Shown here: positions 1-19,222 of the stretch, piece after piece
Position numbering within the stretch: position 1 is the stretch's first letter
How the letters are laid out: every line of letters starts with the position of its first letter
DNA from: Candidatus Zixiibacteriota bacterium
GTDB taxonomy: Bacteria > Zixibacteria > MSB-5A5 > GN15 > FEB-12
Assembly: GCA_020344395.1 (NCBI GenBank)
Contig: CP070824.1
Coordinates: 2,823,609 to 2,871,027 of the forward strand
Length of the DNA stretch: 47,419 bases
Reading direction: 5' to 3'
The notes under the pieces: generated by a model
Told to the model about the DNA's origin: nothing
Seen by the model: only the letters and a program-made list of their open reading frames with translations
Database searches by the model: none
Position numbers and translations under genes: made by a program

Positions 1-1992
1 GGTCAGATAGAAATCAATGGAATCCAGTGGCACCTCGGACGGGTCGCTGTAAGGCGGCTCCGTGGCCTCAGGGTAAGACTTGACAATAGGTGTCTCCCAC
101 CCGAAAAGCGCCGCGTTGCAACCAATCGGCTCGAAATAGAAAACTGAGTCGTCAAAATACGGCATGCGGTATGGGTCCTCACGATAATATGCTTCCGGGA
201 TAAACGATGAGTCCCCGCATCCTGCGGCCGCATACTTGCACCTCAGTTCCTCAACGGTGAACCGTCGTCTGACAAGATCCCACTGAACGCTGGTTGGATT
301 CCAGACATACTTGTAATAGTCCTGAACATCGCAGGAAGCCACAAGCGTTGACGGACCTGTGCCTGGCTCCGGAGAGTAATAGATGTTGTAGCCTTCGAAA
401 TTTATCTCACGTGAGATAATATCCCGCGATGTCTCAGACAGGTGGCCGTTCCACCTCAATCGGAGCGCTGATGGGAGCGGTTCAACCCAAAGATGGGGAG
501 CCGGTGGTGCGACCACCGCACGATAATCGGGTACGCCGTCTCCCTCGGTCCAGACCGTATCCCCATTGCATACAACGTATTGACCGGCGTAGCCGTCGGA
601 ATCCGTATCCACACCCGGATTGTCGTAAACATATCCGGCCCACATGGCGTTGTACGTCAGATCACTGAAATCTAGAAACATGTAATAGACTTCGGGCTCT
701 TCCGGCAGGAAATCGGTCACACCCAGATTCTTGTGCAGGAACTTGCCGGCTACGTAGGCGAGGGCCAGAGGAACACTTTCACCCGGGCCGAGATCGAAGG
801 GACCAAACGAGAGCAGATATTTCGTATCCCATCCATCAGTTATGTCAGCCGCAATGGTCGGAGGCGGAGAGTACCATACGGAATCATCACTGAACACGGA
901 TCCGGTGTATATCTGATCGAAATCAATCTCGCCGTTGCTGAGCATATAGTACTTGTTACGATCTCCCTCGGGAGTGCCCATGCCGCCGGTTCCAAAATCC
1001 CTGTAGTTGTCGCGCCGCATCGGCCCCCAGTCAAGCGACGGGTTGCCGTTGGAAACCCACCAGTTAAATGAGACTACCGGGCTGTCAACAGGAGACTGCA
1101 GCACTCTCGTTCCCGTAACGTGCGGGCTCCATTGCGAAAAGGGATAATAGAGATCGCCGTCATTATCAGCAATCCACGCAAGATTCATCGGATATGCAAC
1201 GCCGCAGGTAACCGGCAGATACGGATCCCTTGCGGTCGGAATGAAGCCGGCCACATCGTCGAAAAATCCCGTGGGTATTACTTCTGAATGAACATCCCCG
1301 TCGACATATACGCCAAGATAGCCATCGGAAATAGCTGATGTACCGATGTTCTTGATCTGATAGCTGAAAATAACGAAATCATCAGTGTGCGGATAACTCC
1401 AGGCATACGTTTCCTGAGTGATCTCGATGTTCAGAGGCAGGTGCGGCCGACCATCAAGAAAATCCAGGGTCAATCCCGTGACGCCGGATGTAAAGGTATC
1501 GGTATAGACGGCAACGTAGTCCTGCTCGGATACCGCGCCCACTGCCTCCAGCCTTGTCGGGTCAACGGTCGAGCGAGAAATCATGTCACCGGCAGGCGAC
1601 TCATGCGGGTGCAGCTCGGCCCCGCCGCTCCAGCCGTCCCGGCCGGACGACACCAGCGTATCGGTTTCGATAATGCCGCCGATCCAGAAAGCAGCCCCGA
1701 ACAAGTATCGGCTGTTGCTGCCCGCAGGGTACTCCATGGTCGGTACCCGTTCGCCGGTAAAACAATCAAGGTCGCCGGAAGATGAGAATGGTGTCCCAAA
1801 ACTACCGTTATTGCTGACACCAAAGATGAGGTTGCCGACATCATGCTTGCCGATACAGTAAGCGGGGACAGCGGTGGCGATGGAATTCCCGGTGCTCCGT
1901 GGATATTCCGCCGACGTCCTGGCATGTACCGAAGGCGCGATAATCAGAACGGCCATGACAATCAGAAACAGAGTCAGTCCCGAGCGCACCAT
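1..1992 (-). CDS. Secreted hypothetical protein, 3'-truncated by the window edge (at least 664 codons); signal peptide, large unassigned domain, FN3-like segment near the edge
   Basis: Absent from the ORF track, presumably because it has no stop inside the window. I read plus-strand triplets 1-3, 4-6 ... up to 1990-1992 and found no tta/cta/tca, so the minus-strand frame is uninterrupted. The ATG at 1990-1992 lies 1 nt after the TGA of the upstream gene and is preceded by GGGGGAG. The N-terminus MVRSGLTLFLIVMAVLIIAPSVHA|R looks like a Sec signal peptide. Confidence 0.7.
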   Translation of the reverse strand, partial: MVRSGLTLFLIVMAVLIIAPSVHARTSAEYPRSTGNSIATAVPAYCIGKHDVGNLIFGVSNNGSFGTPFSSSGDLDCFTGERVPTMEYPAGSNSRYLFGAAFWIGGIIETDTLVSSGRDGWSGGAELHPHESPAGDMISRSTVDPTRLEAVGAVSEQDYVAVYTDTFTSGVTGLTLDFLDGRPHLPLNIEITQETYAWSYPHTDDFVIFSYQIKNIGTSAISDGYLGVYVDGDVHSEVIPTGFFDDVAGFIPTARDPYLPVTCGVAYPMNLAWIADNDGDLYYPFSQWSPHVTGTRVLQSPVDSPVVSFNWWVSNGNPSLDWGPMRRDNYRDFGTGGMGTPEGDRNKYYMLSNGEIDFDQIYTGSVFSDDSVWYSPPPTIAADITDGWDTKYLLSFGPFDLGPGESVPLALAYVAGKFLHKNLGVTDFLPEEPEVYYMFLDFSDLTYNAMWAGYVYDNPGVDTDSDGYAGQYVVCNGDTVWTEGDGVPDYRAVVAPPAPHLWVEPLPSALRLRWNGHLSETSRDIISREINFEGYNIYYSPEPGTGPSTLVASCDVQDYYKYVWNPTSVQWDLVRRRFTVEELRCKYAAAGCGDSSFIPEAYYREDPYRMPYFDDSVFYFEPIGCNAALFGWETPIVKSYPEATEPPYSDPSEVPLDSIDFYLT

Positions 1993-1993
1993 C

Positions 1994-4036
1994 TCACTCC
2001 CCCACTCCGGCCGGTGACGGTTCTGCCGATCGGGGCAGGCCTTGCCGGTATCTGTGACGCACAGCGGCAGTGTCAATCAGCACCGGTGCCCCGGGGTATC
2101 TCAGTTCTCGCACCGGTTCAGTGAGATAGGGATCATACAGCCAGCTCAGCATATCGTTGACGGCAAGCTGCGCTGCTGACTCTTCGAAAGCATACGGGGT
2201 GAACATCCACACCGCCGTCCGGAAAGCCGACGTCGCGTATCGCATAGCCACAGGTCGGCCGTGAAAGTTGTAGTTGGGATCGTTCAACCAGTGTTCTGCT
2301 CCAAACAGTGAATTATACAGGTACATCGGCACCGAACCTGGCTTACGAACAAACCAGTCCACCTCCGGCAGGACGGCAAGGGTATCAATCCACGGATAAT
2401 GATCTTTCCATGCGTAGCGCCGGTGAAGCAGTGCGGTGTCAATCGGCAGATCAGGCCATGAACCTGCATCGAGAGTAAGAGCGCCCGCGAAATCCTCGAT
2501 CCTCTGTGAGTTGACGAAGATGTGCCATTCCCAGCCCGAATACACGGAGTTTTCTATGCCGAAGTAGTACCCGAGCGCATCAGCGAACTCTGACCGCAGA
2601 GTCGGGAAAACATCGAAGTTCGGTTCCCCGCCATCACAGCCGTACCACTGAGCACGGCCGCACAACCAGACATTTACACCGAGATCGAGAGCAGTGAAGA
2701 GGTCCTGTCTGATCGTCAGGTCGGCCAGGCCTCCGGGAAACGAATTGTCGTTAAGGATCAGCAGCATTTTGCCCGACAGCATCCGCTGCAGCGTAAAACG
2801 ATCGCCGTTGGTCGCGGTCGGGACATAATAATCGCCGGCCGAATCATAGTTTACGGTTGTTCCCGTGGCGACGGCCCAGTTATCGATAGCTCGCGCCCAG
2901 AAGGCACGGGCACTGTCCAGAATACGACCGTTGACACTATACGCAATCTGCAGGTCAGCGATATAGATATCGTGTTCGAACTTCGGATCGATCACTATCA
3001 CCGGCACCAGAGCCGGAGTGGGGTCATACAGACCGGGATCCACCGGGTCGCGTGAACGAACCCAGAAGATGAATCTCATCATCTCAGTGGTATCTGAGAG
3101 TGCCGCCTGGAAAACATCGTAAAGCTCGTCAAGCGTGTCGGCCACCCATTCATCTGTCCCGTCATAAGAGTTTAAGGCAATCCGGTTGAACCGCTCGTCA
3201 GACTTGAACTCGTAATCGTCAACGGTCAGAATGGTGTCAAGCATACCCAGCGGACCACTAACCTGGATAGTATCGATCAGAACTGTATCGCAGACAATCT
3301 GAAAGCCGGTTGGATCGATCTCCACCGGCACCGGAATGGTATCACAGACCAGAAAAGTCTCGTTGTCCCCAACAAAGAAGATCTCACCGTTCAGTCTGCG
3401 GAACACTCTCCGGACAAACCTGTCCATCAGTTCTTCGTAGGTTGTGTCCCTCGCCGGATCGTACGATCCGGTCTGCTCCAGTGAAAAATTGGCTGGATAC
3501 GGCCCGTACAGCCTCCATTCGTAGTCGAAATCAGGCTGCGAGTACGGATGGTCCACCGGATCGGACCCCATCCACTCAGCAGGTATCCCGGTGGCCGGAT
3601 TACCCGGTTCACTTGCGTTTATGTAAGTCAGGTAGTCCCATCCTGCCGGACTCCTGATCTCTGTTCTTGGGGGTGTATTGAACGGCTCCGGGCAGCCGGG
3701 AAGCTCAGTATAGCTGATGAACAGAAAGTCTATCAGCCGGGTCAGGTCGCCGACATCGACCACCCCGTCCGGGCTGCCGTCGATATTGGCCTCGGCCCGG
3801 TTCAGGAGAGGCGCATGGGACATGTACAAATAGTCAATCAGGAGAGTAAGGTCGCTGATATCAACGAGGTCTTTGTAATCACAGTCAACGTTGCCGACCC
3901 TGCCGACACAACAGCAGCCGGCTGTGGAACTCACACAGTCGGTTTCGCCTCTGGCCGCCGGCAAAATACACGTAATGGCGAGACCGAGAAATACCGATAA
4001 TCTGCCATACCGCCCGATCCCGAACCTGTCAATCAT
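1994..4036 (-). CDS. Secreted protein with an N-terminal Cys-framed dockerin-like module followed by ~560 aa of unassigned domain
   Basis: 680-aa ORF with SD GGGAGGAATTAA before the ATG. Signal peptide is ...VFLGLAITCILPAARG. Residues ~39-116 (GCCCVGRVGNVDCDYKDLVDISDLTLLIDYLYMS...EANIDGSPDGVVDVGDLTRLIDFLFISYTELPGCP) match the module that is C-terminal in eight other island proteins. Confidence 0.85.
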   Translation of the reverse strand: MIDRFGIGRYGRLSVFLGLAITCILPAARGETDCVSSTAGCCCVGRVGNVDCDYKDLVDISDLTLLIDYLYMSHAPLLNRAEANIDGSPDGVVDVGDLTRLIDFLFISYTELPGCPEPFNTPPRTEIRSPAGWDYLTYINASEPGNPATGIPAEWMGSDPVDHPYSQPDFDYEWRLYGPYPANFSLEQTGSYDPARDTTYEELMDRFVRRVFRRLNGEIFFVGDNETFLVCDTIPVPVEIDPTGFQIVCDTVLIDTIQVSGPLGMLDTILTVDDYEFKSDERFNRIALNSYDGTDEWVADTLDELYDVFQAALSDTTEMMRFIFWVRSRDPVDPGLYDPTPALVPVIVIDPKFEHDIYIADLQIAYSVNGRILDSARAFWARAIDNWAVATGTTVNYDSAGDYYVPTATNGDRFTLQRMLSGKMLLILNDNSFPGGLADLTIRQDLFTALDLGVNVWLCGRAQWYGCDGGEPNFDVFPTLRSEFADALGYYFGIENSVYSGWEWHIFVNSQRIEDFAGALTLDAGSWPDLPIDTALLHRRYAWKDHYPWIDTLAVLPEVDWFVRKPGSVPMYLYNSLFGAEHWLNDPNYNFHGRPVAMRYATSAFRTAVWMFTPYAFEESAAQLAVNDMLSWLYDPYLTEPVRELRYPGAPVLIDTAAVRHRYRQGLPRSAEPSPAGVGE
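3689..3922 (-). repeat. Cys-framed dockerin-like module, N-terminal copy (in 1994..4036)
   Basis: AGCCCVGRVGNVDCDYKDLVDISDLTLLIDYLYMSHAPLLNRAEANIDGSPDGVVDVGDLTRLIDFLFISYTELPGCP. Confidence 0.8.
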
Positions 4037-4167
4037 TTAATTCCTCCCGTCAGAACGCACCTCATGCCAGAGACGCACAGCGATCCTGCCTGTTCAATAA
4101 AAAAACCCAATGAAGAACAACAAGTGCTGGTATGTCTGCAACCTGTCGATGTCTACCGAACAGGCGC

Positions 4168-4785
4168 TTATTTCAGGATTCGGGCGATGGCGTCCGCTAC
4201 GTAATCAGGCTTGACCTTATCATCTATATCCCCCCCAATGAACACTTCGCCGAGGACTTTCCCGTTATTGTCAAGGATCTTTATGTCCACCCTGCTGACA
4301 ACATCCCCTTTCCCCCATCCGACGGAAAGACTCCGATAATTATAATCATCCTCGACTGCACTGTATCCGTACTGGTGCTCCTCGGCCAATTCCTGGGAGA
4401 ATTTCTCCGCATCAGGGGTTGACATACCCCACGACCTGATCTTTTTCCCATAGAGTTTGATCTCGATAGTCCCCACGACCGGCACATTCTCGAGGAGCTT
4501 GATGTCATGCTTCGAGGTGAGTGCCTTCCTTATCGTCTCCACGTATTCAAGACAGTGATCCGCCACCGTGTATTTTGACTGGTATTCAGACAGATCAATC
4601 TCGACGCGGGAACTGTCCTGCTCCGCCTGTGCCTGCGCTTCACCGTCCCACGTGACCCGCCAGCTGTCGATGAACCGGGCCTCACCATAAATCGACGTCT
4701 GTTTGACGGCCGGTTTGGAACAGCCGGTCAGCAGAATGCACCCTAATATTGGGAACGCAAACAATGGAGCCAATAAATTGCGCAT
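4168..4785 (-). CDS. Small lipoprotein, function unknown
   Basis: 205-aa ORF with SD AGGAGA 5 nt before the ATG. Lipobox is FPILGCILLTG|CSKP. I recognise no family. It is the only small protein in the island and the only one besides the edge gene without the dockerin-like module. Confidence 0.75.
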   Translation of the reverse strand: MRNLLAPLFAFPILGCILLTGCSKPAVKQTSIYGEARFIDSWRVTWDGEAQAQAEQDSSRVEIDLSEYQSKYTVADHCLEYVETIRKALTSKHDIKLLENVPVVGTIEIKLYGKKIRSWGMSTPDAEKFSQELAEEHQYGYSAVEDDYNYRSLSVGWGKGDVVSRVDIKILDNNGKVLGEVFIGGDIDDKVKPDYVADAIARILK

Positions 4786-4906: not shown

Positions 4907-5131
4907 CTACGGGCACTCCGCCAGCGGGTCGTAGCTGATGAAGAGAAAATCAATCAGGGCCGTGAGGTCTCCGATGTCAACCGGACTGATACCATCCACG
5001 TTGGCTTCAGCCATGCAGCCGGGCTCCTCAAAACTGATAAAGAGATAGTCAATCAGCCTGGTAAGATCACCAATATCGACAACATTTTCCGGGTCACCGT
5101 CGACGTTACCGACCTGCCCTGTACAACAAGA
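4907..5131 (-). repeat. Cys-framed dockerin-like module, C-terminal copy
   Basis: SCCTGQVGNVDGDPENVVDIGDLTRLIDYLFISFEEPGCMAEANVDGISPVDIGDLTALIDFLFISYDPLAECP-stop. Confidence 0.85.
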
Positions 5132-6259
5132 GACAATCTGTGTCCGGTTGAACCAGATTCTGGTAGCACCTCCATCAAAGTCGTTGACGACTAAATCGAC
5201 AAGGTGATCCCCATTCAAATCGCACCCTGATGGATCAGTGCTCAATATCTCCGTGCTAATGCCGAACTCACTCGCGACATATCCCCCACCGCCATCATTG
5301 ACATATAGCTGGTGCAGCATCCCATTGCTCGTCAGTACAATATCAGGGAACGCGTCGGCGTTAAAATCACGCACACACACAGCCCCGAAGTATGTGTTTG
5401 CCAGAACGAGGTCAGAAAAACTGAACGAGCCGGTGCCATCGTTCAGCAGAATTCTGGTCGGAGCAGCTTCGAGAGTAAATCCCGTGGTGACCACAGCATC
5501 GATGTCGCCGTCGTTATCCAGGTCGCCAAAGCCGACATCTCCCGCCAGAAGGGAGGGATCTTCGAGAAAAGACGATTGGGTGAAGTTTCCGGAGCCATCG
5601 TTCTCCATGGTCCTGTAGCCAACGGACGATACACATTCAATGCAGTCCAGGTCTCCGTCAGCATCCAGATCAGCGAAATCCGTGCAGTACGCGGCGATAA
5701 CACTGCTTTCCTGGAAATTACCGTTGCCGTCGTTCTTATAAATCACGTCGGGAAGAGAGAAGTATTCAACTATGATATCAGGGTCCTGGTCGCTGTCGAT
5801 ATCGTGCACCTGGACGTGGCCGCCCCCCTTGGATATGTCACCAAACTGTTGTCCCGACTTGGTGAAGTGCCCGCTCCCGTCATTCAGATAGATAGCACTG
5901 CCGTGGGAGGTGCTGGTCGAGGTAACAAAGAAGTCGATGTCACCGTCGAAATCGAAATCAGCCATACCTATTCCGTGTCCTTCCGTGTAAGGTAGGCTCT
6001 GCCCTGAACCGGTCAGGTGCCCGCTGCCATCATTGAAATAGACGATTATCACGTGCTGGTCGTAAATGGGGAACACAACATCCTGATCCTGGTCACCATC
6101 GATATCGGCCAGTCCTACCTCGAAAACCAACCACGGTCCGAACGTCTGCGGGCTGACCTCAAATAGGACGCTTGGGGGAGTTCCCCCATCCGAGCCGAAT
6201 CCGTTCACCAAAAACAGGGGCACAAACAGCATGCAAAATACTATGATTTTTCTCCGCAT
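4907..6259 (-). CDS. FG-GAP/VCBS-type seven-repeat beta-propeller protein with C-terminal dockerin-like module
   Basis: Track ORF is 4907..6292. I prefer the ATG at 6259 (MRRKIIVFCMLFVPLFLVNG, signal peptide) because GAGGAG sits 5 nt upstream. Seven Ca-loop repeats are visible (DIDGDQDQDVV, DFDFDGDIDFF, DIDSDQDPDII, DLDADGDLDCI, DLDNDGDIDAV, DFNADAFPDIV, DLNGDHLVDLV). The C-terminus is the module. Confidence 0.85.
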   Translation of the reverse strand: MRRKIIVFCMLFVPLFLVNGFGSDGGTPPSVLFEVSPQTFGPWLVFEVGLADIDGDQDQDVVFPIYDQHVIIVYFNDGSGHLTGSGQSLPYTEGHGIGMADFDFDGDIDFFVTSTSTSHGSAIYLNDGSGHFTKSGQQFGDISKGGGHVQVHDIDSDQDPDIIVEYFSLPDVIYKNDGNGNFQESSVIAAYCTDFADLDADGDLDCIECVSSVGYRTMENDGSGNFTQSSFLEDPSLLAGDVGFGDLDNDGDIDAVVTTGFTLEAAPTRILLNDGTGSFSFSDLVLANTYFGAVCVRDFNADAFPDIVLTSNGMLHQLYVNDGGGGYVASEFGISTEILSTDPSGCDLNGDHLVDLVVNDFDGGATRIWFNRTQIVSCCTGQVGNVDGDPENVVDIGDLTRLIDYLFISFEEPGCMAEANVDGISPVDIGDLTALIDFLFISYDPLAECP

Positions 6260-6429
6260 ACACACTCCTCGGGGCAAAACATTCATGCGCATATAGAACT
6301 ACAGTTATCAGCAATTGACATCACAGCCGCCCTCCCGCCGGAAGACCCGATTATATTCATGACCGGTCTGAGGTAATGGTACCAGGTTATCGAATACCGT
6401 CCTCTCAGACAGGGCTCTGATATATCAAT

Positions 6430-6486: not shown

Positions 6487-6714
6487 TCACGGGCACTCCG
6501 CCAATGGGTCGAAGCTGATGAAGAGATAGTCAATCAATTTGGTCACATCGCCGATATCGATCGATCCCAGACCGTCGACGTTGGCCTCATCAGGGCAAAC
6601 AGGCTCAACGTAACTGATAAAGAGATAGTCGATTAGTCGTGTCAGGTCACCTATATCGACGATGTGTGCAGGATCGTTATCGATGTTACCGGTGACAAAT
6701 AGACAGCAGTCGCA
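6487..6714 (-). repeat. Cys-framed dockerin-like module, C-terminal copy
   Basis: CDCCLFVTGNIDNDPAHIVDIGDLTRLIDYLFISYVEPVCPDEANVDGLGSIDIGDVTKLIDYLFISFDPLAECP-stop. Confidence 0.85.
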
Positions 6715-9700
6715 GGCATCTCCCGCACTATCACCATCCGTGTCAACCTGGTCCGCGTTGGCTGTCTCCGGACAGTTGTCGCACAGATCACCAACACCAT
6801 CAGAATCCATATCCTCCTGCCCCGAATTCCAGTCCAAGGCACAGTTATCCAAGACATCAGCCACACCATCGCCGTCATCGTCTTCGTCACAAGCATCGCC
6901 CAGCCAGTCACCGTCCGTGTCAACCTGATCAGCGTTATAGACGCCATCACAGTTGTCGCAGGCATCTCCGGCACCGTCGCCATCGCTGTCTGCTTGGTCA
7001 GGGTTGTAGACAGTCGGGCAGTTGTCCGACGTGGCATAGATATCATCAAGATCGCCGTCACCCAGCAAAAACACATATACGCGCCCAGCTTCATAACCAG
7101 CCGCGCCCTGCACATCGGCACCCACAATCAGGTCCTGGATACCGTCGCCGTTGACATCAGCAGTTGAAAGAGCGCACCCAAAACCATCACCATGTATTGT
7201 GGGGTAGATTATTTCTTCATGATCGAAGGACTGGAGTCTCGAGCCATCCAGGCCCGAAAACAAAGTGACTCGTCCTACTCTGCCCATACTGGCAATGGCA
7301 TAGTCATCATGACCATCCATGTCCACATCTCCCAGGCCACACATCGAATTGCCCAGGTACTCGCTATGAGTTTTGCCCAGATACTCTCGGATGACGGAGC
7401 CGTCCTGACCAGAGAGTATTCTCACCAATCCTCCAAATACAACCCCACTGAAGCTGTAACTCGCATATGACCACAACAAATCGGTGCTGCCGTCTGCATT
7501 CACATCACCTGCCGCCGCGACACGCCGGTTACCCCCGAGCAGTTGGACATAGAAGCTGTACATCAGACTATGATCTCGTCCCGAATTCACACGAGTTGAA
7601 GTGGCGCACGGCGCGTACGACGCCATCGCATAGTCTGCATAGCCATCACGGTCCATGTCTCCAACATCAGCCAGGATCCGTCCGAAAGTGTTACAGCCCT
7701 GTTGACGATGTAACAGTAAGCCGTCCGGACCGGAGAGTACATATACCCTGCCCAGCAAGCCCTCCCCGGGCTGCGGGGCCCCCACGATTATATCAGGATA
7801 GCCGTCCTTGTCCATATCCCCACCGCCGGAGACAGCTGTTCCGAAGAGGTCCGCTGATCTCTCTCCGCACATCGAGTAGACCTGTTTGTAAGTCGCACCA
7901 GAAACCACTGATATACGACCTGCAAGATAATCACATAAACTGCTGCGGGGCGCGCCGATAACGAAATCGGCTCGCCCATCATCGTCGATATCACCGATTC
8001 CGGCTACTGCTGAACCGAAAGCTTCGTCCGGAAAGGATCCGTCAAGGCGAGCAACCAGCTGACCCTGACTGCCACTGTACACGTAGACACAACCGGCATC
8101 CTGCTTGTACCCGGTCTTGAAGTCGTCAACATCGTGACCTGGAGCACCCACCGCTATATCGTCTATGCCGTCACCGGTCACATCACCTATGCCGGCTACC
8201 GAACGCCCGAAAAACTCGTTGGCCGTATCAGGTGTGAATACATAATAGTACTCTGCCTCTTCGGTACAGATATCACCCACGCCGTCACCGTCACTGTCAA
8301 GCTGGTCGGGATTGGCCCGGCCCGGACAATTGTCGCAGGGACCGCCAAAACTGTCACCGTCACGATCAGACTGATCCGGATTGGGAGTATCCAGGCAGTT
8401 GTCGCAATCATCACCGACCCCATCACCGTCCATGTCTGCCTGCTCCGGCTGATAGATGTCCGGACAGTTGTCACAAAGATCCCCCAGACCGTCAACGTCA
8501 CCGTCCGCCTGATTGGCGTTGGCTATCAATGCGCAGTTATCCTGAAGATCCGGCACTCCATCACCATCATCATCGTCATCACAAACATCACCGACACCGT
8601 CGCCATCAAGATCGGCCTGATCCTTGTTGGCCAGGCTCGGACAGTTGTCACAGGCATCACCTGAACCGTCACCATCACTGTCGGCCTGATCAGGATCATA
8701 GTCAGTCGCACATATGTCACATAGGTCACCAACACCATCGGCATCACCATCTGACTGGTCGGCGTTGGGAATGTCAGGACAATTGTCATCATCATTCGCG
8801 AAACCATCACCGTCATGGTCAGGATCGCACTCGTCACCGATGTTGTCGTTGTCAAAGTCGGCCTGTTCCCAGTTGGCCAGAGCGGGACAATTATCACAGA
8901 TATCTCCAATAGCGTCACCATCAATATCCGACTGATCGGCATTAGGATCATCCGGGCAGTTATCGCAATAATCACCTTTGCCGTCCCCGTCGGAATCGCC
9001 GCCACACGAAAACAGGATGGATGTCACGTCCGGAATACCCCAACCCCAGTCATTGTCCGGCTCGGAGGCCCGACTGGCTGTCTCGAGCATAGCCCGGCGC
9101 ACCATTCGAGGCGTCATATCCGGGTGGGCCTGAACAACAAGACAGGCCACCCCGGCGACAAGTGGTGCGGCAACAGAAGTGCCGCTTCCCCCTCCATTGT
9201 ACGAACTGTCACTGGTGATACCAGCACAGTATACTGCCTCCATCTGCGCACAGAGTTCCGGTTTTATCCGTCCATCATATGTTGGCCCTCGAGAGGAAGA
9301 CGAATGCAAAGCTCCGGATCGGTCTACACCTCCTACGGCGATTATGTCAAACGCATCAACAGGAGGGGCGATGCTGGCCGACGCCGGACCGTCGTTGCCG
9401 GCGGCGTTGCAGAGGACAATACCAAGCTCCGCTGCCGTATTGGCAGCCAGGGTCACCACCGCTGTTCGACCATCACAATCTTCCGGCTCGTACCAGACAG
9501 GGTAGCCCAGCGATGAACTGACCACATCCGCTCCGACCGAATCACAGAACTCCAGACCCGCCACCCAATTGTCTTCCTCGACAGGTGTCTCAGACCTCAC
9601 ATCCTCGGTCTTGCAGATGACGAAATTGGCCTCGTAAGCTGGACCATAGAGCCTCCCGTCAGCCTCACCGCCCGCTATTGACCAGATCGCTGTACCATGA

Positions 9701-10539
9701 ACCCAGGCCTCCGGGTCATCTTCAGGCTCGTTTGCGGTCTCACTGTCATCAAAGACAAAATCGTATTCGGCCAGCAGCCGCCCCTCGGCAATGATCCTAG
9801 CAAACGCCTCATGGCTTTTCCTGAAACCATCGTCCAGGATACCAAGTGTGACCCCTTTGCCGGTGAAATCTTCAAGGTGCGCAAACGGAACGTTCAGCAT
9901 GGCTAACTGATTATACGATGGCCCGTAGTCAAGTATACTCAAAGACTGGCGAAAAGTACCTCTGGTATCAACGCTGCTGTCCGCAACCTGAAGTTCCGGC
10001 CGCTTGCTCGCAGCCACAGGCTCAAGACGCACTACAAACGGCAACTTACCTATAGCATCAAGACGATCTGTCGGAATCTCGAAACTGGCTGCATTCAGCC
10101 AACGGGAAGTACGGCGAAGTCTCCCCCCAAGAGCAACCACCCGGTCGACATACTCCTGAACCACCGGCAAATCTGCGAACAGAATCCTGTCCCGGCCCAT
10201 CTTGGCCCGACGAGTCTTCGCTCGCACCGTGAGACTTACGCTGGAAACAAGACGAGCATACTCCTGATTGGTCGTGACCCCTTTGTCCGTGAAAAACACC
10301 CACACCCTGGCGCTCTCGCTATCCCGCGCGATCAAAAACCCGCGGGCGCGCTCCGACAACGGCTGAGCAGACCTCGCAATCCGAACCGGCCCCTCCGTAA
10401 GAGCCCCCTCAATAATCTGGCGTGAATTATAGCGGGCCGCTCCGTCAGAACGCTCCGCCCCGTAAACCTGAGTAGTCCCTGCGACTATCCACGTAATTAA
10501 GGCTAATTGCCCGAATAATCGACTTGATGACAATTCCAT
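6487..10539 (-). CDS. Subtilisin-family (S8) serine peptidase fused to thrombospondin type-3 repeat arrays, an FG-GAP integrin-alpha-like propeller and a C-terminal dockerin-like module
   Basis: 1350-aa ORF with SD AAGGAGAGGA and a signal peptide. S8 motifs read directly: GILDDG (Asp), HGTAIWSIAGG (His), AAGNDG (oxyanion Asn), GTSVAAPLVAG (Ser). There are many DxDxDGxGDxCDNC repeats and FG-GAP repeats (FGRSVAGIGDVTGDGIDD, FGSAVAGIGDIDDDGRAD, and others). Confidence 0.92.
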   Translation of the reverse strand: MELSSSRLFGQLALITWIVAGTTQVYGAERSDGAARYNSRQIIEGALTEGPVRIARSAQPLSERARGFLIARDSESARVWVFFTDKGVTTNQEYARLVSSVSLTVRAKTRRAKMGRDRILFADLPVVQEYVDRVVALGGRLRRTSRWLNAASFEIPTDRLDAIGKLPFVVRLEPVAASKRPELQVADSSVDTRGTFRQSLSILDYGPSYNQLAMLNVPFAHLEDFTGKGVTLGILDDGFRKSHEAFARIIAEGRLLAEYDFVFDDSETANEPEDDPEAWVHGTAIWSIAGGEADGRLYGPAYEANFVICKTEDVRSETPVEEDNWVAGLEFCDSVGADVVSSSLGYPVWYEPEDCDGRTAVVTLAANTAAELGIVLCNAAGNDGPASASIAPPVDAFDIIAVGGVDRSGALHSSSSRGPTYDGRIKPELCAQMEAVYCAGITSDSSYNGGGSGTSVAAPLVAGVACLVVQAHPDMTPRMVRRAMLETASRASEPDNDWGWGIPDVTSILFSCGGDSDGDGKGDYCDNCPDDPNADQSDIDGDAIGDICDNCPALANWEQADFDNDNIGDECDPDHDGDGFANDDDNCPDIPNADQSDGDADGVGDLCDICATDYDPDQADSDGDGSGDACDNCPSLANKDQADLDGDGVGDVCDDDDDGDGVPDLQDNCALIANANQADGDVDGLGDLCDNCPDIYQPEQADMDGDGVGDDCDNCLDTPNPDQSDRDGDSFGGPCDNCPGRANPDQLDSDGDGVGDICTEEAEYYYVFTPDTANEFFGRSVAGIGDVTGDGIDDIAVGAPGHDVDDFKTGYKQDAGCVYVYSGSQGQLVARLDGSFPDEAFGSAVAGIGDIDDDGRADFVIGAPRSSLCDYLAGRISVVSGATYKQVYSMCGERSADLFGTAVSGGGDMDKDGYPDIIVGAPQPGEGLLGRVYVLSGPDGLLLHRQQGCNTFGRILADVGDMDRDGYADYAMASYAPCATSTRVNSGRDHSLMYSFYVQLLGGNRRVAAAGDVNADGSTDLLWSYASYSFSGVVFGGLVRILSGQDGSVIREYLGKTHSEYLGNSMCGLGDVDMDGHDDYAIASMGRVGRVTLFSGLDGSRLQSFDHEEIIYPTIHGDGFGCALSTADVNGDGIQDLIVGADVQGAAGYEAGRVYVFLLGDGDLDDIYATSDNCPTVYNPDQADSDGDGAGDACDNCDGVYNADQVDTDGDWLGDACDEDDDGDGVADVLDNCALDWNSGQEDMDSDGVGDLCDNCPETANADQVDTDGDSAGDACDCCLFVTGNIDNDPAHIVDIGDLTRLIDYLFISYVEPVCPDEANVDGLGSIDIGDVTKLIDYLFISFDPLAECP
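6715..7029 (-). repeat. Thrombospondin type-3 (TSP3) calcium-binding repeat array, coding, inside the S8 peptidase gene
   Basis: Repeated DNCPxxxNxDQxDxDGDGxGDxCD units, for example DNCPTVYNPDQADSDGDGAGDACDNC. This periodic GAC/GAT-rich DNA leaves several alternative frames open. Confidence 0.85.
8263..9003 (-). repeat. Thrombospondin type-3 repeat array (about 12 units), coding, inside the S8 peptidase gene
   Basis: Runs from GDSDGDGKGDYCDNCPDDPNADQSDIDGDAIGDICDNCP to CDNCPGRANPDQLDSDGDGVGDIC. Boundaries were read from the reverse complement at ~9003 and ~8263. Confidence 0.85.
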
Positions 10540-10760: not shown

Positions 10761-10988
10761 TCACAAGCAGTCTGCGAGCGGGTCATAGCTAATGAAGAGA
10801 TAGTCGATCAATTTGGTCACATCGCCGATATCGACCGATCCCAGGCCGTCAACATTCGCAGCATCGAGGCACTCCGGCTCCTCAAGGGTAATGAAAAGGA
10901 AGTTGATAAGCCCTGTTAGATCACCGATGTCAACGGTGCCGAGGGGATCGTTATCTACGTTGCCGGTTGTGCCGGTGCAGCAGGCCGA
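10761..10988 (-). repeat. Cys-framed dockerin-like module, C-terminal copy
   Basis: SACCTGTTGNVDNDPLGTVDIGDLTGLINFLFITLEEPECLDAANVDGLGSVDIGDVTKLIDYLFISYDPLADCL-stop. Confidence 0.85.
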
Positions 10989-12596
10989 TCCTCCGGATAT
11001 GGCATCCACCAGAACAGGCGCGTACTCCCCGGCATAGGTGACGAACTTCGGCAGGAAGACAGCATAACCGGCCATCGATATGTCGTATGCCTCCGGCGGC
11101 ACCGCCATTGATCCTCTGAAGAAGACCGACAGCACTGGCGCAGCACCCGGACTGAGCGAAGAACTGCCGTCGGAGGATGCCTTCATGGTGACCGTCAGCC
11201 GGTAGTGACTTATATCGAAATTGAGAATATTCTGGACCTCAAAGAACTCTGTCCGCAGACCTGCCGTGCTGATAGAATCAAAACTGAGAGTGTACGGGCC
11301 CTCCCAGCAGATGGGTATTATCATCTCGGTAAGCGGAACAAAATTACGCACAAATATGTCCACGCGCACGATCTGGTCCGGCAGACCGCCGCTGACATCG
11401 GCCCGCATGGTATCCGCATACGCCGAAACCAATCCGGGCAAAGTCTTGGTCCGCACACCGTCCGACGTGCTCGCTGTGAATTGGACGTTAAAGTGCCCCG
11501 GCTGCGTGTATTCGTGTGAACAATTCTGCATCGTTGAACCGGAGCCGTCGCCGAAGTCCCATTCACAACTGTCTATCTGTACACCCGGCACATCAGATGT
11601 GAAATCAACCAGCAGCGGAGTCGGACCGAAAGTGTTCACGGCCTCGACATGGACGGGTTTGTATTCTATGTAATTCGCGGCATAACCAATACTCGAATAA
11701 CCGTACGGGATGAGCATATAGCCGCCCTCTCCCCATCCGGGACCCCATGAGTTGCGCATAAACCAGACCCCGGCCGGGCCCTGGTTGTCATCCCAGCCAA
11801 CCAGCACCACGGCATGGTTGATCGTACCCTGCTCATTGACGTTGAACACGCCGCCGTTATATGCCTGCATAGCCGGACCGGCATAAACACACACCGAGAT
11901 CGGCCCATACTCCACGATAGCCTGCTTCATCGCCTGCACACTGGGTACGCCGGAACTGGTGCCGATGTACATCCAATCCTCGATCAGATAAGGATGCGGA
12001 TCCGGGCCGCCGCAGGGACCATCGGTGGCTGTATACGGATAATCAGATTCTAAAACGGCCCCGGTGCTGTCGTCCAGTCCCGGTTTCCACTCATGGTAAT
12101 CGTGTGCAAACCACCCCCCGCCGCAATCCCAGCCGTTGCGATTACATCTCAGGAGCCACTGCTCGGACAGATCAACACTCACCCCTTCCGCTATCCTGAT
12201 GTTACATTCGAGGGCTCCCACGGTGCTGAACGCCCAGCAGCTTCCGCAGCCTCCTTGATTTCTGACCGGGGTGACACCGTCCAGAGCGCGCCAGTCAAAA
12301 GTAGCCGGGAGCTCGACCGTCATGGCTTCCACCATCGGGTCGAAATCCGCTCCGTCACGCCAGTCCTCAGGCTCCACCATACCACAGAGTTCTTCAAGCG
12401 AGTATTGTGTGGCCGCATTCTCACCCACATCAAACGTCCACCCTTCAACGCGGGCTCGCTCCTGCAATTGCACCAGGTCTCCGGGAGTAAGCTGAGCCAG
12501 AGAGCGGTCGGCAATCATGCAAAACGATATGACTATTCCGGTAAGAATAATAACAGGGCAAGCTGTCAATGGTCTGCGACAAAAGGGGCGAATCAC
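10761..12596 (-). CDS. Papain-family (C1) cysteine peptidase with PKD domain, a beta-rich cohesin-like(?) segment and C-terminal dockerin-like module
   Basis: 611-aa ORF with a GTG start preceded by GGAGAGGAG, plus a signal peptide. C1 motifs: QGGCGSCWAFS (Gln/Cys), NHAVVLVGWD (His), NSWGPGWGEGGY (Asn/Trp). PKD signature is WDFGDGSGS. Confidence 0.92.
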   Translation of the reverse strand: MIRPFCRRPLTACPVIILTGIVISFCMIADRSLAQLTPGDLVQLQERARVEGWTFDVGENAATQYSLEELCGMVEPEDWRDGADFDPMVEAMTVELPATFDWRALDGVTPVRNQGGCGSCWAFSTVGALECNIRIAEGVSVDLSEQWLLRCNRNGWDCGGGWFAHDYHEWKPGLDDSTGAVLESDYPYTATDGPCGGPDPHPYLIEDWMYIGTSSGVPSVQAMKQAIVEYGPISVCVYAGPAMQAYNGGVFNVNEQGTINHAVVLVGWDDNQGPAGVWFMRNSWGPGWGEGGYMLIPYGYSSIGYAANYIEYKPVHVEAVNTFGPTPLLVDFTSDVPGVQIDSCEWDFGDGSGSTMQNCSHEYTQPGHFNVQFTASTSDGVRTKTLPGLVSAYADTMRADVSGGLPDQIVRVDIFVRNFVPLTEMIIPICWEGPYTLSFDSISTAGLRTEFFEVQNILNFDISHYRLTVTMKASSDGSSSLSPGAAPVLSVFFRGSMAVPPEAYDISMAGYAVFLPKFVTYAGEYAPVLVDAISGGSACCTGTTGNVDNDPLGTVDIGDLTGLINFLFITLEEPECLDAANVDGLGSVDIGDVTKLIDYLFISYDPLADCL

Positions 12597-12715: not shown

Positions 12716-12946
12716 CTATGGACACGGCGCGGTTGGCGTATACGGCGGAATAAACAGGAAACCTATAAGTTTAGTCAGGTCGCCCATATCAACAGATCCA
12801 AGACCATCGGTATTGGCTTCCTCCATGCAAACCGGTTCCTCAAATGTTATGAACAGAAAATTGATCAGTTCCGTCAGATCGCCGATGTCGCAGATGTCAT
12901 CCGGATCATTATCGACGTTGCCGGTCAGTCCCACGCAGCAACCGGC
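12716..12946 (-). repeat. Cys-framed dockerin-like module, C-terminal copy
   Basis: AGCCVGLTGNVDNDPDDICDIGDLTELINFLFITFEEPVCMEEANTDGLGSVDMGDLTKLIGFLFIPPYTPTAPCP-stop. Confidence 0.85.
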
Positions 12947-15088
12947 CGAAGTAACCGAAACATCGTCAATGTACCAACCCTCCTGATTTACATAACCATC
13001 CGAACCGAACCGGAACATTATTTGCACTACCCCTGAATAGGCTGACAGGTCGAAATCGGCCATTGTCCAGGAATGACTCCCCGAGTAGCAGGGTGTATAG
13101 GGCTCGAACGGGCTGGCCACATTCGGTACGATGGCGTAAGGGTATCCGCCCGAAGGGGTGATCTGAGTCCACACTCCGTCCCCCGACGATATCATGACGA
13201 CAGCACCATCCCACGCCATGCCCGGTTCGGCGTCAATCTCCGCATCCATCCAGTGCCAGAAGCTCAGCGTCGCATTGATAGGAAGCAAGAATGGGGGCGT
13301 AACAAGACCGGCATCCATCACGTCAGCATAATTGCCTGTCCCGGTCCCCCCCGCCTTCCAACTGGTAACACCGCTGTAGGCTCGGCTTGTCTCCAGGTGC
13401 CACTGGTCGTTATAGGCCGGAGTAACCGGCGAGTGTGTCCAATAACCCTCACCGGATTCCATCATGTCTTCGAATCCGGGTGTGTCGCCGACAAAGACCC
13501 TGAGCGTATCGGTGATGGAATACCCTCCATCGCACGACACCTCCAGGACAAAGACAGCAATATGGGGATCAGGACAGGATGGACTGACGGAGAATTCAAA
13601 CGCGGATTGCGTCGTGCCGGTATCTCCCCATACAATGGTACTTTCGAAGTCGGCTGATGATACATCGATACTAATATATGAATCGTCTGTCGACAGCGTT
13701 CCGGTGGTGTTAGTGGCATCCCAGCCCCGATTGACGATATCAACGGAAAGTGACATCGACTCGCCGGGATCGGCATGCCCGTCGCCATCGCCCGAGTTCT
13801 CCGCCACCACCTGACCGTAATAGACAATCACCGGCTCCGTCTGCGGGTAGATGTGCGTTATCATAAACTCCTCTTCGTACGGACAGACCTCCCCCGTGAT
13901 CCAGTAGCAATAAAGGCTGTCGAGAACATACCAAGCTGTGGAATTACCGGCCCAGCCGTAGTTCATGTGATATTCGTATTGACCGCCTTGCTCGCGGTAG
14001 CCGTCACACACGATGGAGTGCATATTAATGCGGTACTGAATCGGCCGACTGTTGTCGATCTCCTCCTGGACCAGCCCGTACCAACCCGCCTGGTCGTAAT
14101 CTGCTCGATTCACTCGGCGGATCTCCGGGCTGTATTTGTAAAACGTGGAAAACACGGTCGTAGCTCTTGAGACCGAAGCGCCGGAACCACAGACGCCGTA
14201 ATTCATATCAAAAGCCACGCCCGTCTCATAGTTCAACTCGGCCAGCGCCTCTCCCTGTGCAGTCGTATAGCCCAGATCCACGCTGTCGATCATATTGGCC
14301 CAGTCATACGGATCGGAAAAATCCGCCGTCAGCAAACCGCCCCCTACATCACCGCCACATGACTGATCGCCATCCCATGTATAGGAATAAGATCCAAATC
14401 CGCTGGCGGGCCACTGCCAGTAATACAGAATCTGGGCAGCCGCTGTGGCGACACAACCCACAACGCAGGTGCCGCCATCACCCTCCGGACACAGATCGTT
14501 ATACGGTGGCCCCTGGTTCCAGCTTGACGTCAGCAAAGGTCCCGCTTGTTGTGGAGACTGAACACGCTGCATGCCCACATCCCGCACGAATTGCTCGTGG
14601 GAGACGGTCAGTTTGTCCCACTGTGCGCTCTGACTGCGCGCGAACAGCAGCTCGCCCGTGGTTGGTTGCTCTGCATCCAGACTGCCATACAACTCCACAT
14701 ATGCCGACAAACGCTCGGATAAAACCTCCCTGACAAGCTGGACCATCCCGCCGTCGTCACCAACGTCAAACCCTGAGTGTTCGGAGTACAACTTAACGGG
14801 CATCATTTCTTTAAGCACAGGAACCAGTACGAAGCCCGAGGGCGAAATGTGGTAACACCTGGCCAGCACAGTATCACCCGACTTCAATTCTTCTGCGTAC
14901 GTCACCTCCGGGTCATCGCTGCCGGCCCAGCTGCCAAAATCGTACACTACCTGAGTCAGCCAGTTTTCACTTACACGGTCCATCTCCTGTTCTGATGCCA
15001 CTGTCGCCTGAGCAGGTTGCCATCCCACCATCACAACCAGCATGCAGGCTGCCCAAAAAAGAATCTGCTGCCCTATGAACTCCCTCAT
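12716..15088 (-). CDS. Streptopain-family (C10) cysteine peptidase with N-terminal pro-region, CARDB-like and MAM/choice-of-anchor-J-like domains and C-terminal dockerin-like module
   Basis: 790-aa ORF with SD GGAGG 8 nt upstream. Signal peptide is ...VVMVGWQPAQA. C10 motifs: CVVGCVATAAAQILYYWQWP (Cys) and MHSIVCDGY (His). The assignments of the downstream domains are pattern-level guesses. Confidence 0.88.
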   Translation of the reverse strand: MREFIGQQILFWAACMLVVMVGWQPAQATVASEQEMDRVSENWLTQVVYDFGSWAGSDDPEVTYAEELKSGDTVLARCYHISPSGFVLVPVLKEMMPVKLYSEHSGFDVGDDGGMVQLVREVLSERLSAYVELYGSLDAEQPTTGELLFARSQSAQWDKLTVSHEQFVRDVGMQRVQSPQQAGPLLTSSWNQGPPYNDLCPEGDGGTCVVGCVATAAAQILYYWQWPASGFGSYSYTWDGDQSCGGDVGGGLLTADFSDPYDWANMIDSVDLGYTTAQGEALAELNYETGVAFDMNYGVCGSGASVSRATTVFSTFYKYSPEIRRVNRADYDQAGWYGLVQEEIDNSRPIQYRINMHSIVCDGYREQGGQYEYHMNYGWAGNSTAWYVLDSLYCYWITGEVCPYEEEFMITHIYPQTEPVIVYYGQVVAENSGDGDGHADPGESMSLSVDIVNRGWDATNTTGTLSTDDSYISIDVSSADFESTIVWGDTGTTQSAFEFSVSPSCPDPHIAVFVLEVSCDGGYSITDTLRVFVGDTPGFEDMMESGEGYWTHSPVTPAYNDQWHLETSRAYSGVTSWKAGGTGTGNYADVMDAGLVTPPFLLPINATLSFWHWMDAEIDAEPGMAWDGAVVMISSGDGVWTQITPSGGYPYAIVPNVASPFEPYTPCYSGSHSWTMADFDLSAYSGVVQIMFRFGSDGYVNQEGWYIDDVSVTSAGCCVGLTGNVDNDPDDICDIGDLTELINFLFITFEEPVCMEEANTDGLGSVDMGDLTKLIGFLFIPPYTPTAPCP

Positions 15089-15331: not shown

Positions 15332-15574
15332 TTACCGGCAGTTGACAGGCGGATCATTTGGCGGAATGAACAGGTAGATGATCAGGGCCGTAAGGTCACC
15401 GATATCGACTACTCCGTCGAGACTGCCGTTGATGTTTGCCTCCTCTTCGCAGCACAGCGGATCCGAGGCTCCTGTTATAAACAGATACTGTATAAGTCTG
15501 GTCAGATCACCCACATCAACCGCTTCACCGACATCGCAGTTGACGTTTCCTCTCATATCAATACAGCAGCCAGA
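15332..15574 (-). repeat. Cys-framed dockerin-like module, C-terminal copy (most divergent)
   Basis: SGCCIDMRGNVNCDVGEAVDVGDLTRLIQYLFITGASDPLCCEEEANINGSLDGVVDIGDLTALIIYLFIPPNDPPVNCR-stop. Confidence 0.8.
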
Positions 15575-18500: not shown

Positions 18501-19222
18501 CCGTCCTGGTCGGCATCAGCCTGATCAGGATTGTACCGGTAGGGACAGTTGTCGTCAGGGCAAGTATTGGCAGCATACCCCGGATTTCCGAACCCGTCAG
18601 CATCGGTGTCGGTACAAGTATCGCAATCATTGACCCAGCCGTCGCCGTCGGCATCGTCTTCTCCAACACACGCATCAATCAAGAAACAGTGTGGCCCGTC
18701 CCAGGAAGGAACAAGATTTCCGGAGGCTGCATTGCTCCACAACCAGGTACCTCCTGGACGAATCCACGAGGAATCCAGACATATGTGCTTACCATCGTCC
18801 TCCACCCTGGTGTCAAGCGAAATTGTGTACGGGACCGCATCGTAACCGGGCGGAAGACCTTCGGCCGCCGAAAAGCCAAAGGCCGAAAACCCGATCGAGT
18901 CCGATCCCGTGCCGTCACAACTGAAGCAGGCGATATACGATTGTGAGAACATTCCCGGCGGGAAACCCAGAGTATCACCCTGCAGGTTGTTCCACTCCGC
19001 ACCATCCGGCGAATAGATGCGAAACCCGTTGTAAATGTTGTAGTTATACGCAGAATCGTTGGTCAGTCTGATGTAAAACACTACGTTGGACCCGGCCGAG
19101 AGGACCGAGTCGAGGTACAATCCGTCGACATGATCCAGCGTGACTGAAGTCGCCCCTGCCGTGAAAGGCAGACTGACCGTAACGCTCAATACCAGGACCA
19201 GCACTTTGAAATGGCGTCCCAT
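15332..19222 (-). CDS. Giant secreted adhesin-like protein: two tandem LDHVDG-domain units, thrombospondin type-3-like Cys/Asp repeats, three PKD domains, DPNDK beta-sandwich region, C-terminal dockerin-like module
   Basis: Track ORF is 15332..19246. I prefer the ATG at 19222 (MGRHFKVLVLVLSVTVSLPFTAGA) because GGGGAGG sits 5 nt upstream. PKD signatures: WYWDFGDGGSS, YYWAFGDGNTS, WFWDFGDGATS. Confidence 0.88.
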   Translation of the reverse strand: MGRHFKVLVLVLSVTVSLPFTAGATSVTLDHVDGLYLDSVLSAGSNVVFYIRLTNDSAYNYNIYNGFRIYSPDGAEWNNLQGDTLGFPPGMFSQSYIACFSCDGTGSDSIGFSAFGFSAAEGLPPGYDAVPYTISLDTRVEDDGKHICLDSSWIRPGGTWLWSNAASGNLVPSWDGPHCFLIDACVGEDDADGDGWVNDCDTCTDTDADGFGNPGYAANTCPDDNCPYRYNPDQADADQDGIGDVCEIEGLSVSLDHVDGLYFDTALAAGTPAVFYIRLTNTSEYNWNIYNGFRVYSPEGATWDNFQGDTLGFPPGMFTQSYISCFSCDGTGADSVGFSAFGFSAEEGLPPGYDSVVYTISLDTKVEDGGKYICLDSSWVPPGGTWMWSNAAQGNFIPDWDGPHCFYLDPCLVGDDADGDGLVDACDPCTDTDDDGYGDPGFLANTCQEDNCPDTPNPAQADPDGDSLGTACDNCPEAYNPDQVDGDSDTVGDSCDNCPEDYNPSQDDPDADSVGTDCDNCPDVSNTDQSDPDADEVGTACDNCPEVYNILQINSDTDNLGDSCDNCYLIANQDQADADGDGIGDVCDSCTDIDGDGYGDPGFPTNTCPEDNCPAVYNAAQEDYDMDGVGDSCDTCTDSDGDGYGDPGFWVNECPFDNCPDDPNANQSDTDGDGLGDACDPGEVLFTADRRCGTLPLVVNFTDLSVPTTSIVSWYWDFGDGGSSTDQHPQHEYTTQGAFDVMLLISDGTREDSLIKTEYIVLQDSVSADFIGTPTDGQTPLAVMFEPLLTGAANEYYWAFGDGNTSDLRNPIHVYETQGIFDVMLRVRLQLDDCTQIDSVIKSGYVVVNDLQAEFSGTPRVGIPGLNVQFTDESSGSPTSWFWDFGDGATSYDQNPAHQYAFEGFYDVKLVVSNGPFVDSLLKLDYVRVDTAYSDLYGEIAWTGARPGFEMAYWMVWTNIGTYPAENCSLRVLLPPEMEFWHIIDTFDVVEGGTGHYDGYYMAGDTMVVPLGTIEPSGWYGGFIIPYGRCPEWVPIGDSLTCKMWLTTATPESDYNNNNVVFKDEIIGSIDPNDKSATPAGEGPLHEISDEQRIHYLVQFENKPEATAEAIYVRVVDTLDPLLDWGTLVIGEMSHPDKCTWDFDPYTGVITWFCDSIMLPPNIEAPEGEGFFRYSISPVPGLENGTEIHNVAWIRFDYNAWLKAPEEGGSVMHTIYSGCCIDMRGNVNCDVGEAVDVGDLTRLIQYLFITGASDPLCCEEEANINGSLDGVVDIGDLTALIIYLFIPPNDPPVNCR
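17180..17990 (-). repeat. TSP3-like Cys/Asp repeat array, coding, inside 15332..19222
   Basis: Units such as CDNCPEAYNPDQVDGDSDTVGDSCDNCPEDYNPSQDDPDADSVGTDCDNCPDVSNTDQSDPDADEVGTACDNC, interspersed with CTDxDxDGYGDPGF units. Confidence 0.8.

Follow-up and report, generated by a model that had tools for sequence, protein, structure and literature searches.

A cysteine-framed, dockerin-like module recurring on secreted peptidases and adhesin-like proteins of a Zixibacteria genome, with candidate cohesin-type partners

We analysed a 47,419-nucleotide stretch of the genome of a Candidatus Zixiibacteriota bacterium (contig CP070824.1, positions 2,823,609 to 2,871,027; hereafter the window), in which a short module framed by conserved cysteines recurs nine times. 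The target copy lies at 6490–6714 on the minus strand, directly followed by the stop codon at 6487–6489, and forms the C-terminus of a 1350-residue S8 subtilase/TSP3/FG-GAP protein (open reading frame (ORF) 6487–10539; profile E = 1e-40). By predicted fold and by profile continuity the module belongs to the dockerin superfamily, as a member that standard annotation does not recognise. We consider it probable that the module is a lineage-specific, disulfide-closed dockerin, which tethers secreted proteins to cohesin-type modules on the cell surface.

All nine ranges proposed in a preliminary description of this DNA translate, on the minus strand, into a module of 74–80 residues (the ranges first given for the eight C-terminal copies include the stop codon). 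When the window is translated in all six frames and searched with a profile built from the nine copies, exactly those nine are recovered (E = 1e-33 to 5e-43), with no further match above noise, bearing out both their number and their positions. Our alignment reproduces the consensus of the preliminary description, and the invariant residues include the CC doublet, a G-N pair, three Asp, the last Cys and both D-L/V-T-x-L-I motifs. Within each copy, one half closely repeats the other: of 16 positions compared, covering the end of the loop and the helix, 10–15 are identical, as expected from the internally duplicated unit that had been described. In loop 1, which has a two-residue insert, positions 1, 3 and 5 are D or N, and the positions equivalent to 9 and 12 are Asp. 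The first loop had been described as two residues longer than the second, which holds in seven of the nine copies but not in those at 3689–3922 and 15335–15574, where both loops have 14 residues; across the family, loop 1, as well as loop 2 in about 60% of members, is 14 residues long. The second half had been described as a position-for-position match to the dockerin loop, but the match breaks down at EF-hand position 5 in loop 2, which is Leu or Ile in four window copies (Leu in the target) and Glu in three. Among the nine copies the mean amino-acid identity is 63% and the third-codon-position identity 42%, indicating that these are old paralogues kept by purifying selection. Chance, recent duplication and a gene-conversion artefact are rejected by the same two figures, and an artefact of low complexity or tandem repeats was checked and rejected as well.

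We are highly confident that the module has a dockerin fold. In a Pfam scan, Dockerin_1 (PF00404) is the sole family that recurs among the window copies, and it matches six of the nine, at 13.9–19.3 bits, but reaches its gathering cutoff of 22.9 bits in none of them. A profile search of the Protein Data Bank (PDB) returns a dockerin, 4fl4_A, as the top match (E = 0.047). Furthermore, PF00404 matches 25 of 67 longer representatives of the family at E ≤ 1e-3, and a precomputed PF00404 match exists for 2 of 120 short members. Dockerin is thus the nearest family, in agreement with the preliminary description. The structural model of 82 residues predicted by AlphaFold2 from an alignment of 105 sequences has a predicted local distance difference test score (pLDDT) of 90.6 and a predicted template modelling score of 0.79. 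Specifically, a helix follows each loop (helices 28–40 and 61–73), a short linker helix lies between them (48–51), and a beta-bridge between residues 14 and 80 draws the termini together. The two loop–helix units proposed earlier are therefore also predicted in three dimensions, and the best 30 Foldseek matches of the model in the PDB are all bacterial dockerins, with probabilities of 0.75–1.0 (at least 0.95 for the top 19), target-normalised template modelling (TM) scores mostly of 0.67–0.82, and root-mean-square deviations (rmsd) of 1.5–2.9 Å for the best-ranked matches.

The cysteines set the module apart. The CC doublet and the last Cys are present in all nine window copies and the full set of four in eight, as had been stated, the linker Cys being absent from the copy at 3689–3922. 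Of the 229 distinct full-length modules in the family, 208 (91%) carry either six Cys (111 modules) or four (97 modules). The fifth and sixth sites are loop 1 position 4 and the position directly before the conserved linker Cys, and the loop Cys and the extra linker Cys covary (counts 116/6/2/105; Fisher p = 6e-55, not corrected for phylogeny), with counts of 50/5/1/49 in a smaller module set. Reduced forms occur too: the first doublet Cys and the terminal Cys alone are kept in four instances, and of six instances lacking the linker Cys, four have lost the second doublet Cys as well. The even counts and the paired gain and loss argue for two or three disulfides, one of them linking the N- and C-termini. 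From these sequence patterns we infer, as the simplest reading, that the first Cys of the doublet pairs with the terminal Cys and the second with the linker Cys, while an optional third bond joins the loop Cys to the extra linker Cys in about half of the family. That the module is disulfide-bonded is likely on these grounds; the disulfide-stapled variant put forward in the preliminary description is indirectly supported by the four-or-six counts, the covarying pair and the reduced one-pair forms, together with the signal-like segments of the host proteins, and an oxidising compartment would provide a rationale for such bonds.

The same residues, arranged as CC…C…C with four Cys in a small domain, could in principle make a tetrathiolate site and so bind a metal ion or cluster instead of forming disulfides. 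We regard this as highly improbable. Cysteines gained and lost in pairs, with one-pair forms in existence, are typical of disulfides, and the proteins carry signal peptides and would be extracytoplasmic, both of which argue against a metal-binding role. In addition, neighbouring extracellular domains are Cys-rich as well, namely TSP3 and a cohesin family with five invariant Cys.

The disulfide predicted between the first and the terminal Cys would be a covalent version of the intramolecular clasp between the N- and C-termini of dockerins. In known dockerins, a non-covalent clasp between the termini stabilises the calcium-bound, cohesin-binding form (Slutzki et al. 2013, PMC3821032). As in that clasp, residues just upstream of the first calcium loop would contact C-terminal residues and lock the termini. 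Whereas the clasps of PMC3821032 consist of stacking or a salt bridge at positions −1 to −3, the module would join position −6 or −5 to its penultimate residue by a disulfide, supported by one or two further bonds to the linker. Tandem dockerin units occur among the relatives: the protein P0121 has up to nine, with one Cys at either end of each, and P0132, P0133, P0140 and P0190 also carry many such units, with at least three consecutive half-repeats in P0132 and P0133. The single Cys at both ends of each P0121 repeat suggests that the clasp idea extends beyond the Cys-framed subfamily.

In its overall plan the module resembles a type I dockerin (PF00404; PDB 4FL4, 1OHZ and 2MTE). It has about 70 residues, two repeats of a calcium loop plus helix, a short linker helix and near-symmetric halves; like type I dockerins it is usually C-terminal on secreted enzymes, and the profile similarity, weak as it is, is specific. 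It departs from them in the four or six conserved Cys that frame the domain, in loops of 14 rather than 12 residues, in a hydrophobic residue or Glu at position 5 of loop 2 in seven window copies, in a stop exactly one residue past the last Cys, and in window copies that score below the Pfam gathering threshold. The setting differs as well, since the host is a diderm bacterium of the FCB (Fibrobacterota–Chlorobiota–Bacteroidota) group and the cargo consists mostly of peptidases, not glycoside hydrolases. Dockerins of anaerobic fungi (CBM10-type) are small, Cys-rich, disulfide-bonded modules on secreted enzymes, with an unrelated fold and no EF-hand loops, so that the likeness to the present module is one of name and Cys content alone.

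The position of the module within its host proteins is strict. Eight of the nine copies form the extreme C-terminus of long ORFs, and the remaining copy (3689–3922) is N-terminal. The preliminary description placed the end of the module zero or one residue before the stop; in the eight C-terminal copies exactly one residue (P, L or R) separates the last Cys from the stop each time. The same holds in 84 of 101 instances read from the DNA of related loci, where the module ends Cys-x-stop, and in 121 of the 138 best cluster representatives. The nine host proteins all begin with a hydrophobic, signal-peptide-like segment (read by eye). They are mostly peptidases (S8, C1, C10 and two M12B), accompanied by FG-GAP, TSP3 and PKD proteins and by one protein of unrecognised family; no glycoside hydrolase is encoded in the window. 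In Pfam and NCBIfam scans, none of the nine matches the C-terminal domain of type IX secretion systems (T9SS), represented by Por_Secre_tail (PF18962) and TIGR04183.

Such a terminus would also be expected of a C-terminal export or sorting signal for an outer-membrane machinery, with the module replacing the T9SS C-terminal domain instead of docking. The strictness of the end in window, locus and representative modules (8/8, 84/101 and 121/138, respectively) fits this explanation, as do the many paralogues per genome on unrelated passenger domains and a cohesin-bearing family, described below, whose members have one of two C-termini, a T9SS domain or a Cys-ended dockerin-like module, as though one could stand in for the other. 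We nevertheless judge a sorting signal unlikely, because a conserved N-terminal version exists (3689–3922, and also in the related loci L077, L063 and L042), because some proteins with a genuine T9SS domain at their end (e.g. P0122 and P0139) contain the module internally, and because the predicted fold is a helical pair of calcium loops, not the T9SS beta-sandwich, with no hydrophobic anchor or sorting motif. Moreover, dockerins of cellulosomal enzymes are typically C-terminal too. That the module is itself a T9SS C-terminal domain was rejected on the lack of a PF18962 or TIGR04183 match and on its helical predicted fold; genuine T9SS domains are found alongside the module in other family members. 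A sortase- or exosortase-type sorting signal was rejected because there is no hydrophobic tail.

Cohesin-bearing proteins, the expected partners of a docking module, are found in related genomes. A CipA cohesin query, verified against the PDB (it matched 1AOH), detects cohesin-like domains at four places in three Zixibacteria metagenome-assembled genomes (MAGs) when used on related loci. At one locus (L030), two paralogues at 1095–2621 and 2871–4400 combine a signal peptide, a cohesin, an internal Cys-less dockerin pair and a C-terminal Cys-framed module. At the other two, the cohesin proteins (L040, 1831–4743, minus strand; L074, 4225–6216, minus strand) end in a T9SS C-terminal domain (Por_Secre_tail), and each is the convergent neighbour of a module gene. 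These domains give weak PDB profile matches (E = 1e-3 to 0.05), nearly all of them to cohesins, and hhalign aligns them with cohesins at 93% probability over 50 columns; searching for homologues with an alignment of three cohesin sequences gave no match at a database-wide E-value. A metagenome scan yielded 109 loci related to the Zixibacteria cohesin proteins. In this wider family the cohesin family PF00963 matches 33 of 74 members (best E = 7.5e-13) and Dockerin_1 matches 4, in the internal pair, and all 17 PDB matches of the family profile are cohesins or dockerins, which at the sequence level confirms the cohesin assignment of the domains at the three loci. About 70 of 92 ORFs of the family have a T9SS domain at their end; in 11, the end is formed by a Cys-ended dockerin-like module. 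A conserved cassette, made up of a cohesin, a Cys-less dockerin pair in the interior and a beta domain, is present in L030, L040 and L074 as well as in 80 metagenome loci, L084–L163, and five Cys are invariant in the cohesin domain of four aligned sequences from Zixibacteria MAGs.

The window itself encodes a candidate docking partner of the module, in the form of a 165-residue beta domain that matches no Pfam family and occurs there in module-bearing proteins only. It carries the motifs LDHVDG…CLDSSW…P-W-GP-CF. There are four copies, all on the minus strand: the modelled copy (24544–25038) and a second, 61% identical to it (28417–28905), each lie directly upstream of a module, while ORF 15332–19246 contains a third in its N-terminal region (18668–19150; domain profile E = 9e-71) and a fourth (17990–18472; E = 4e-72). 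AlphaFold2 predicts the domain with a pLDDT of 87.5 from just nine aligned sequences, and its top 22 Foldseek matches in the PDB are all cohesins (E = 7e-6 to 1e-3; TM 0.5–0.68, rmsd 4–7 Å). The profile–profile comparison with cohesins is negative, and the domain was therefore not accepted as a true cohesin; as profile similarity is absent, we call it a cohesin-like fold. The 165-residue domain is also found N-terminally in T9SS-anchored cohesin proteins at metagenome loci L090, L148, L163, L117, L119 and L139.

With these candidates, a route from synthesis to assembly can be proposed. The hosts, peptidases of families S8, C1, C10 and M12B together with adhesin-like FG-GAP/TSP3/PKD proteins, would be exported by Sec, and oxidation in the periplasm of the diderm host would form the two or three disulfides, after which the module would fold in a calcium-dependent manner. 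Outside the cell, the peptidases and adhesin-like proteins would dock through the module onto cohesin-type beta-sandwich modules, the candidate receptors being T9SS-anchored surface proteins and possibly other module-bearing proteins, and the end product would be a multi-protease assembly on the cell surface. The near-identical halves of the module resemble those of dual-binding-mode dockerins. A more speculative version, which we consider unlikely, is a self-assembling, disulfide-hardened Zixibacteria 'proteolosome', in which enzymes that carry both a cohesin-like domain and a Cys-clasped dockerin would chain to one another and join T9SS-anchored cohesin proteins; pairing would perhaps take place in the periplasm, with cargo that has no secretion signal of its own hitch-hiking across the outer membrane on T9SS substrates.

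A number of observations weigh against a disulfide-closed docking module of this kind. No window copy attains the Pfam gathering score for PF00404, and three of the nine have no match to it at all. The Foldseek E-values of the 82-residue model are weak (≥ 0.025), as the small size of the domain would lead one to expect, though every top match is a dockerin. Judging from the residue at position 5, full calcium ligation of loop 2 is doubtful in the four window copies with Leu or Ile. The 47-kb window encodes no Pfam-detectable cohesin, and the cohesin proteins that were found come from other genomes and have an internal Cys-less dockerin of their own. The superpositions of the 165-residue domain on cohesins are loose, at 4–7 Å rmsd, while hhalign gives it a probability of 0.2% against cohesin profiles (CipA and the FCB cohesin family) and it has no sequence match in the PDB. 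Finally, module proteins that lack a T9SS domain would also have to cross the outer membrane.

Some of these points would equally fit a module that works alone, as a calcium-binding domain that stabilises its host protein or binds a matrix such as polysaccharide, lipopolysaccharide or mineral, without a cohesin receptor dedicated to it. For many dockerin-like modules outside cellulosomes no partner is known, and the window, as noted, lacks a Pfam-detectable cohesin; module genes far outnumber cohesin genes, a cohesin lying nearby in 3 of 83 genome loci, and the hosts carry many calcium-binding repeats of other kinds (TSP3 and FG-GAP). However, paralogues and halves alike show very strong conservation of the putative helix surfaces, which a common protein receptor explains better than a diffuse ligand, and cohesin and module occur in one polypeptide (L030 and L130) or in neighbouring genes (L040 and L074). 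We assign a low probability to a partner-less domain and lean slightly towards a function through binding of a cohesin-type partner.

The module is widespread as a family and largely confined to one lineage. Against 1.84 billion cluster representatives, a profile search returns 11,510 at E ≤ 1e-3, 4,279 at E ≤ 1e-10 and 231 at E ≤ 1e-30 (family counts refer to clusters at 50% identity), the weakest of which presumably grade into ordinary dockerins. Named family members are almost all from Zixibacteria, and every source name that we encountered reads "hypothetical protein". Among species-representative genomes, 169 loci were confirmed, and the best 80 lie almost all in Zixibacteria MAGs, at 10–16 loci per MAG. 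Three further module proteins are recorded in a Candidatus Zixiibacteriota MAG with JSU65_ locus tags, which we take to be the source genome; on that assumption, more module copies lie elsewhere in it. Loci L010, L014, L016, L029, L042, L071 and others come from MAGs labelled Ignavibacteriales, Sedimentisphaerales, Aenigmatarchaeota, Acidoferrum or Gammaproteobacteria. Mis-binning or mislabelling is the likely source of such module loci, of which there are from one to many per MAG, and horizontal transfer is possible. Neither NCBIfam nor Pfam-A holds a model dedicated to the module. The last ~60 positions of NCBIfam NF045500 ('Omp28-related selenoprotein') weakly resemble all nine window copies (E down to 1e-4), which suggests that a module of this kind forms the end of NF045500 proteins. 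A search of the available literature found no paper tying Zixibacteria to dockerin or cohesin, and a broader query that took in cellulosome and scaffoldin gave none among the papers it returned.

Comparable systems are known. In the Cloacimonadota, dockerin-bearing peptidases and a T9SS-anchored cohesin scaffoldin have been inferred for 'Ca. Stygibacter' (Williams et al. 2021, PMC8542988). That organism likewise belongs to an FCB candidate phylum, has enzymes that carry a signal peptide and a C-terminal dockerin, S8 and cysteine peptidases among them, and has cohesin-bearing proteins with a T9SS C-terminal domain for surface attachment. In contrast to Zixibacteria, its dockerins are of a standard, InterPro-detectable type with no Cys frame described, and it has one giant tandem-cohesin scaffoldin (PMC8542988), whereas the Zixibacteria cohesin proteins have one to three cohesins and an internal dockerin, and some of the Zixibacteria module-bearing enzymes themselves carry domains of cohesin-like fold. 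In clostridia, dockerin-bearing proteases are anchored to the cell surface (PMC12484212). Cellulosomal proteases, such as the C. thermocellum S8 double-dockerin protein (PDB 8X39, which is among the top Foldseek matches of the module model) and the papain-like peptidase of R. flavefaciens, similarly are subtilisin- or papain-like peptidases tethered to cell-bound cohesins through dockerins; they differ in being accessory parts of Gram-positive, polysaccharide-degrading cellulosomes, while in the window peptidases are the main catalytic cargo. Given the dockerin-tethered clostridial proteases and the Cloacimonadota system, we take the module as a variant of a docking system already known. No new principle is involved, since precedents exist for its fold, for the idea of the clasp and for a comparable system in an FCB candidate phylum.

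If the proposed function is correct, the module would define a large unannotated dockerin subfamily of ~4,300 clusters (50% identity, E ≤ 1e-10) and would carry cohesin–dockerin assembly, linked to T9SS anchoring, into proteolysis at the cell surface of a candidate phylum of diderm bacteria, with a bearing on how these widespread sediment bacteria feed. A natural disulfide-clasped dockerin would furthermore be a ready template for hyperstable docking pairs; in the engineering literature, such disulfides are at present added to dockerins artificially. We consider the module to be of moderate specialist interest, useful for annotation and for the engineering of stable docking pairs.

The remaining eight copies in the window are all on the minus strand and sit in hosts of varied architecture. 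The N-terminal copy (3689–3922, residues 38–116 of ORF 1994–4036) directly follows a signal peptide and is identified by translation and profile. It has CCC and a loop Cys with no linker Cys, and is followed by ~560 residues that belong to no known family; this architecture recurs in loci L077, L063 and L042, marking a conserved orthologue group. Four C-terminal copies, each identified by translation, domain scan and profile, end an FG-GAP repeat protein (4910–5131; ORF 4907–6292), a papain-family C1 peptidase with a PKD domain (10764–10988; ORF 10761–12596), a C10 (streptopain-family) peptidase with a MAM-like domain (12719–12946; ORF 12716–15088) and a beta-propeller-like protein (19591–19815; ORF 19588–20991). 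The copy at 15335–15574, at the C-terminus of a PKD/TSP3/DUF7619 protein (ORF 15332–19246), is of the six-Cys form with 14-residue loops in both halves. The last two copies (24319–24543, ORF 24316–28062; 28192–28416, ORF 28189–31965) end paralogous M12B reprolysin-like metallopeptidases with NHL and TSP3 repeats.

Several other genes lie within or beside this cluster. A signal-peptide protein at 1–1992 (minus strand) runs off the left edge of the window, with at least 664 residues visible and no Pfam family; its C-terminus, beyond the edge, may carry a tenth module. A 205-residue predicted lipoprotein (lipobox LTGC) is encoded inside the cluster at 4168–4785 (minus strand); it matches no Pfam family and, in a search of 5.8 billion proteins, its sole match among the matches listed is itself, and it was dropped as a receptor candidate. 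The rest of the window consists of housekeeping genes of a diderm bacterium, including tpiA, pgk, gap, secG, mreCD, the gene for PBP2, rodA, accA and a gene for an outer-membrane beta-barrel protein. A single tRNA gene at 32432–32513 (minus strand; Rfam RF00005, 47 bits) separates secG from the cluster's first metallopeptidase gene. The sole plus-strand gene within the minus-strand cluster of secreted proteins, at 21844–24177, encodes a 777-residue tetratricopeptide-repeat protein.

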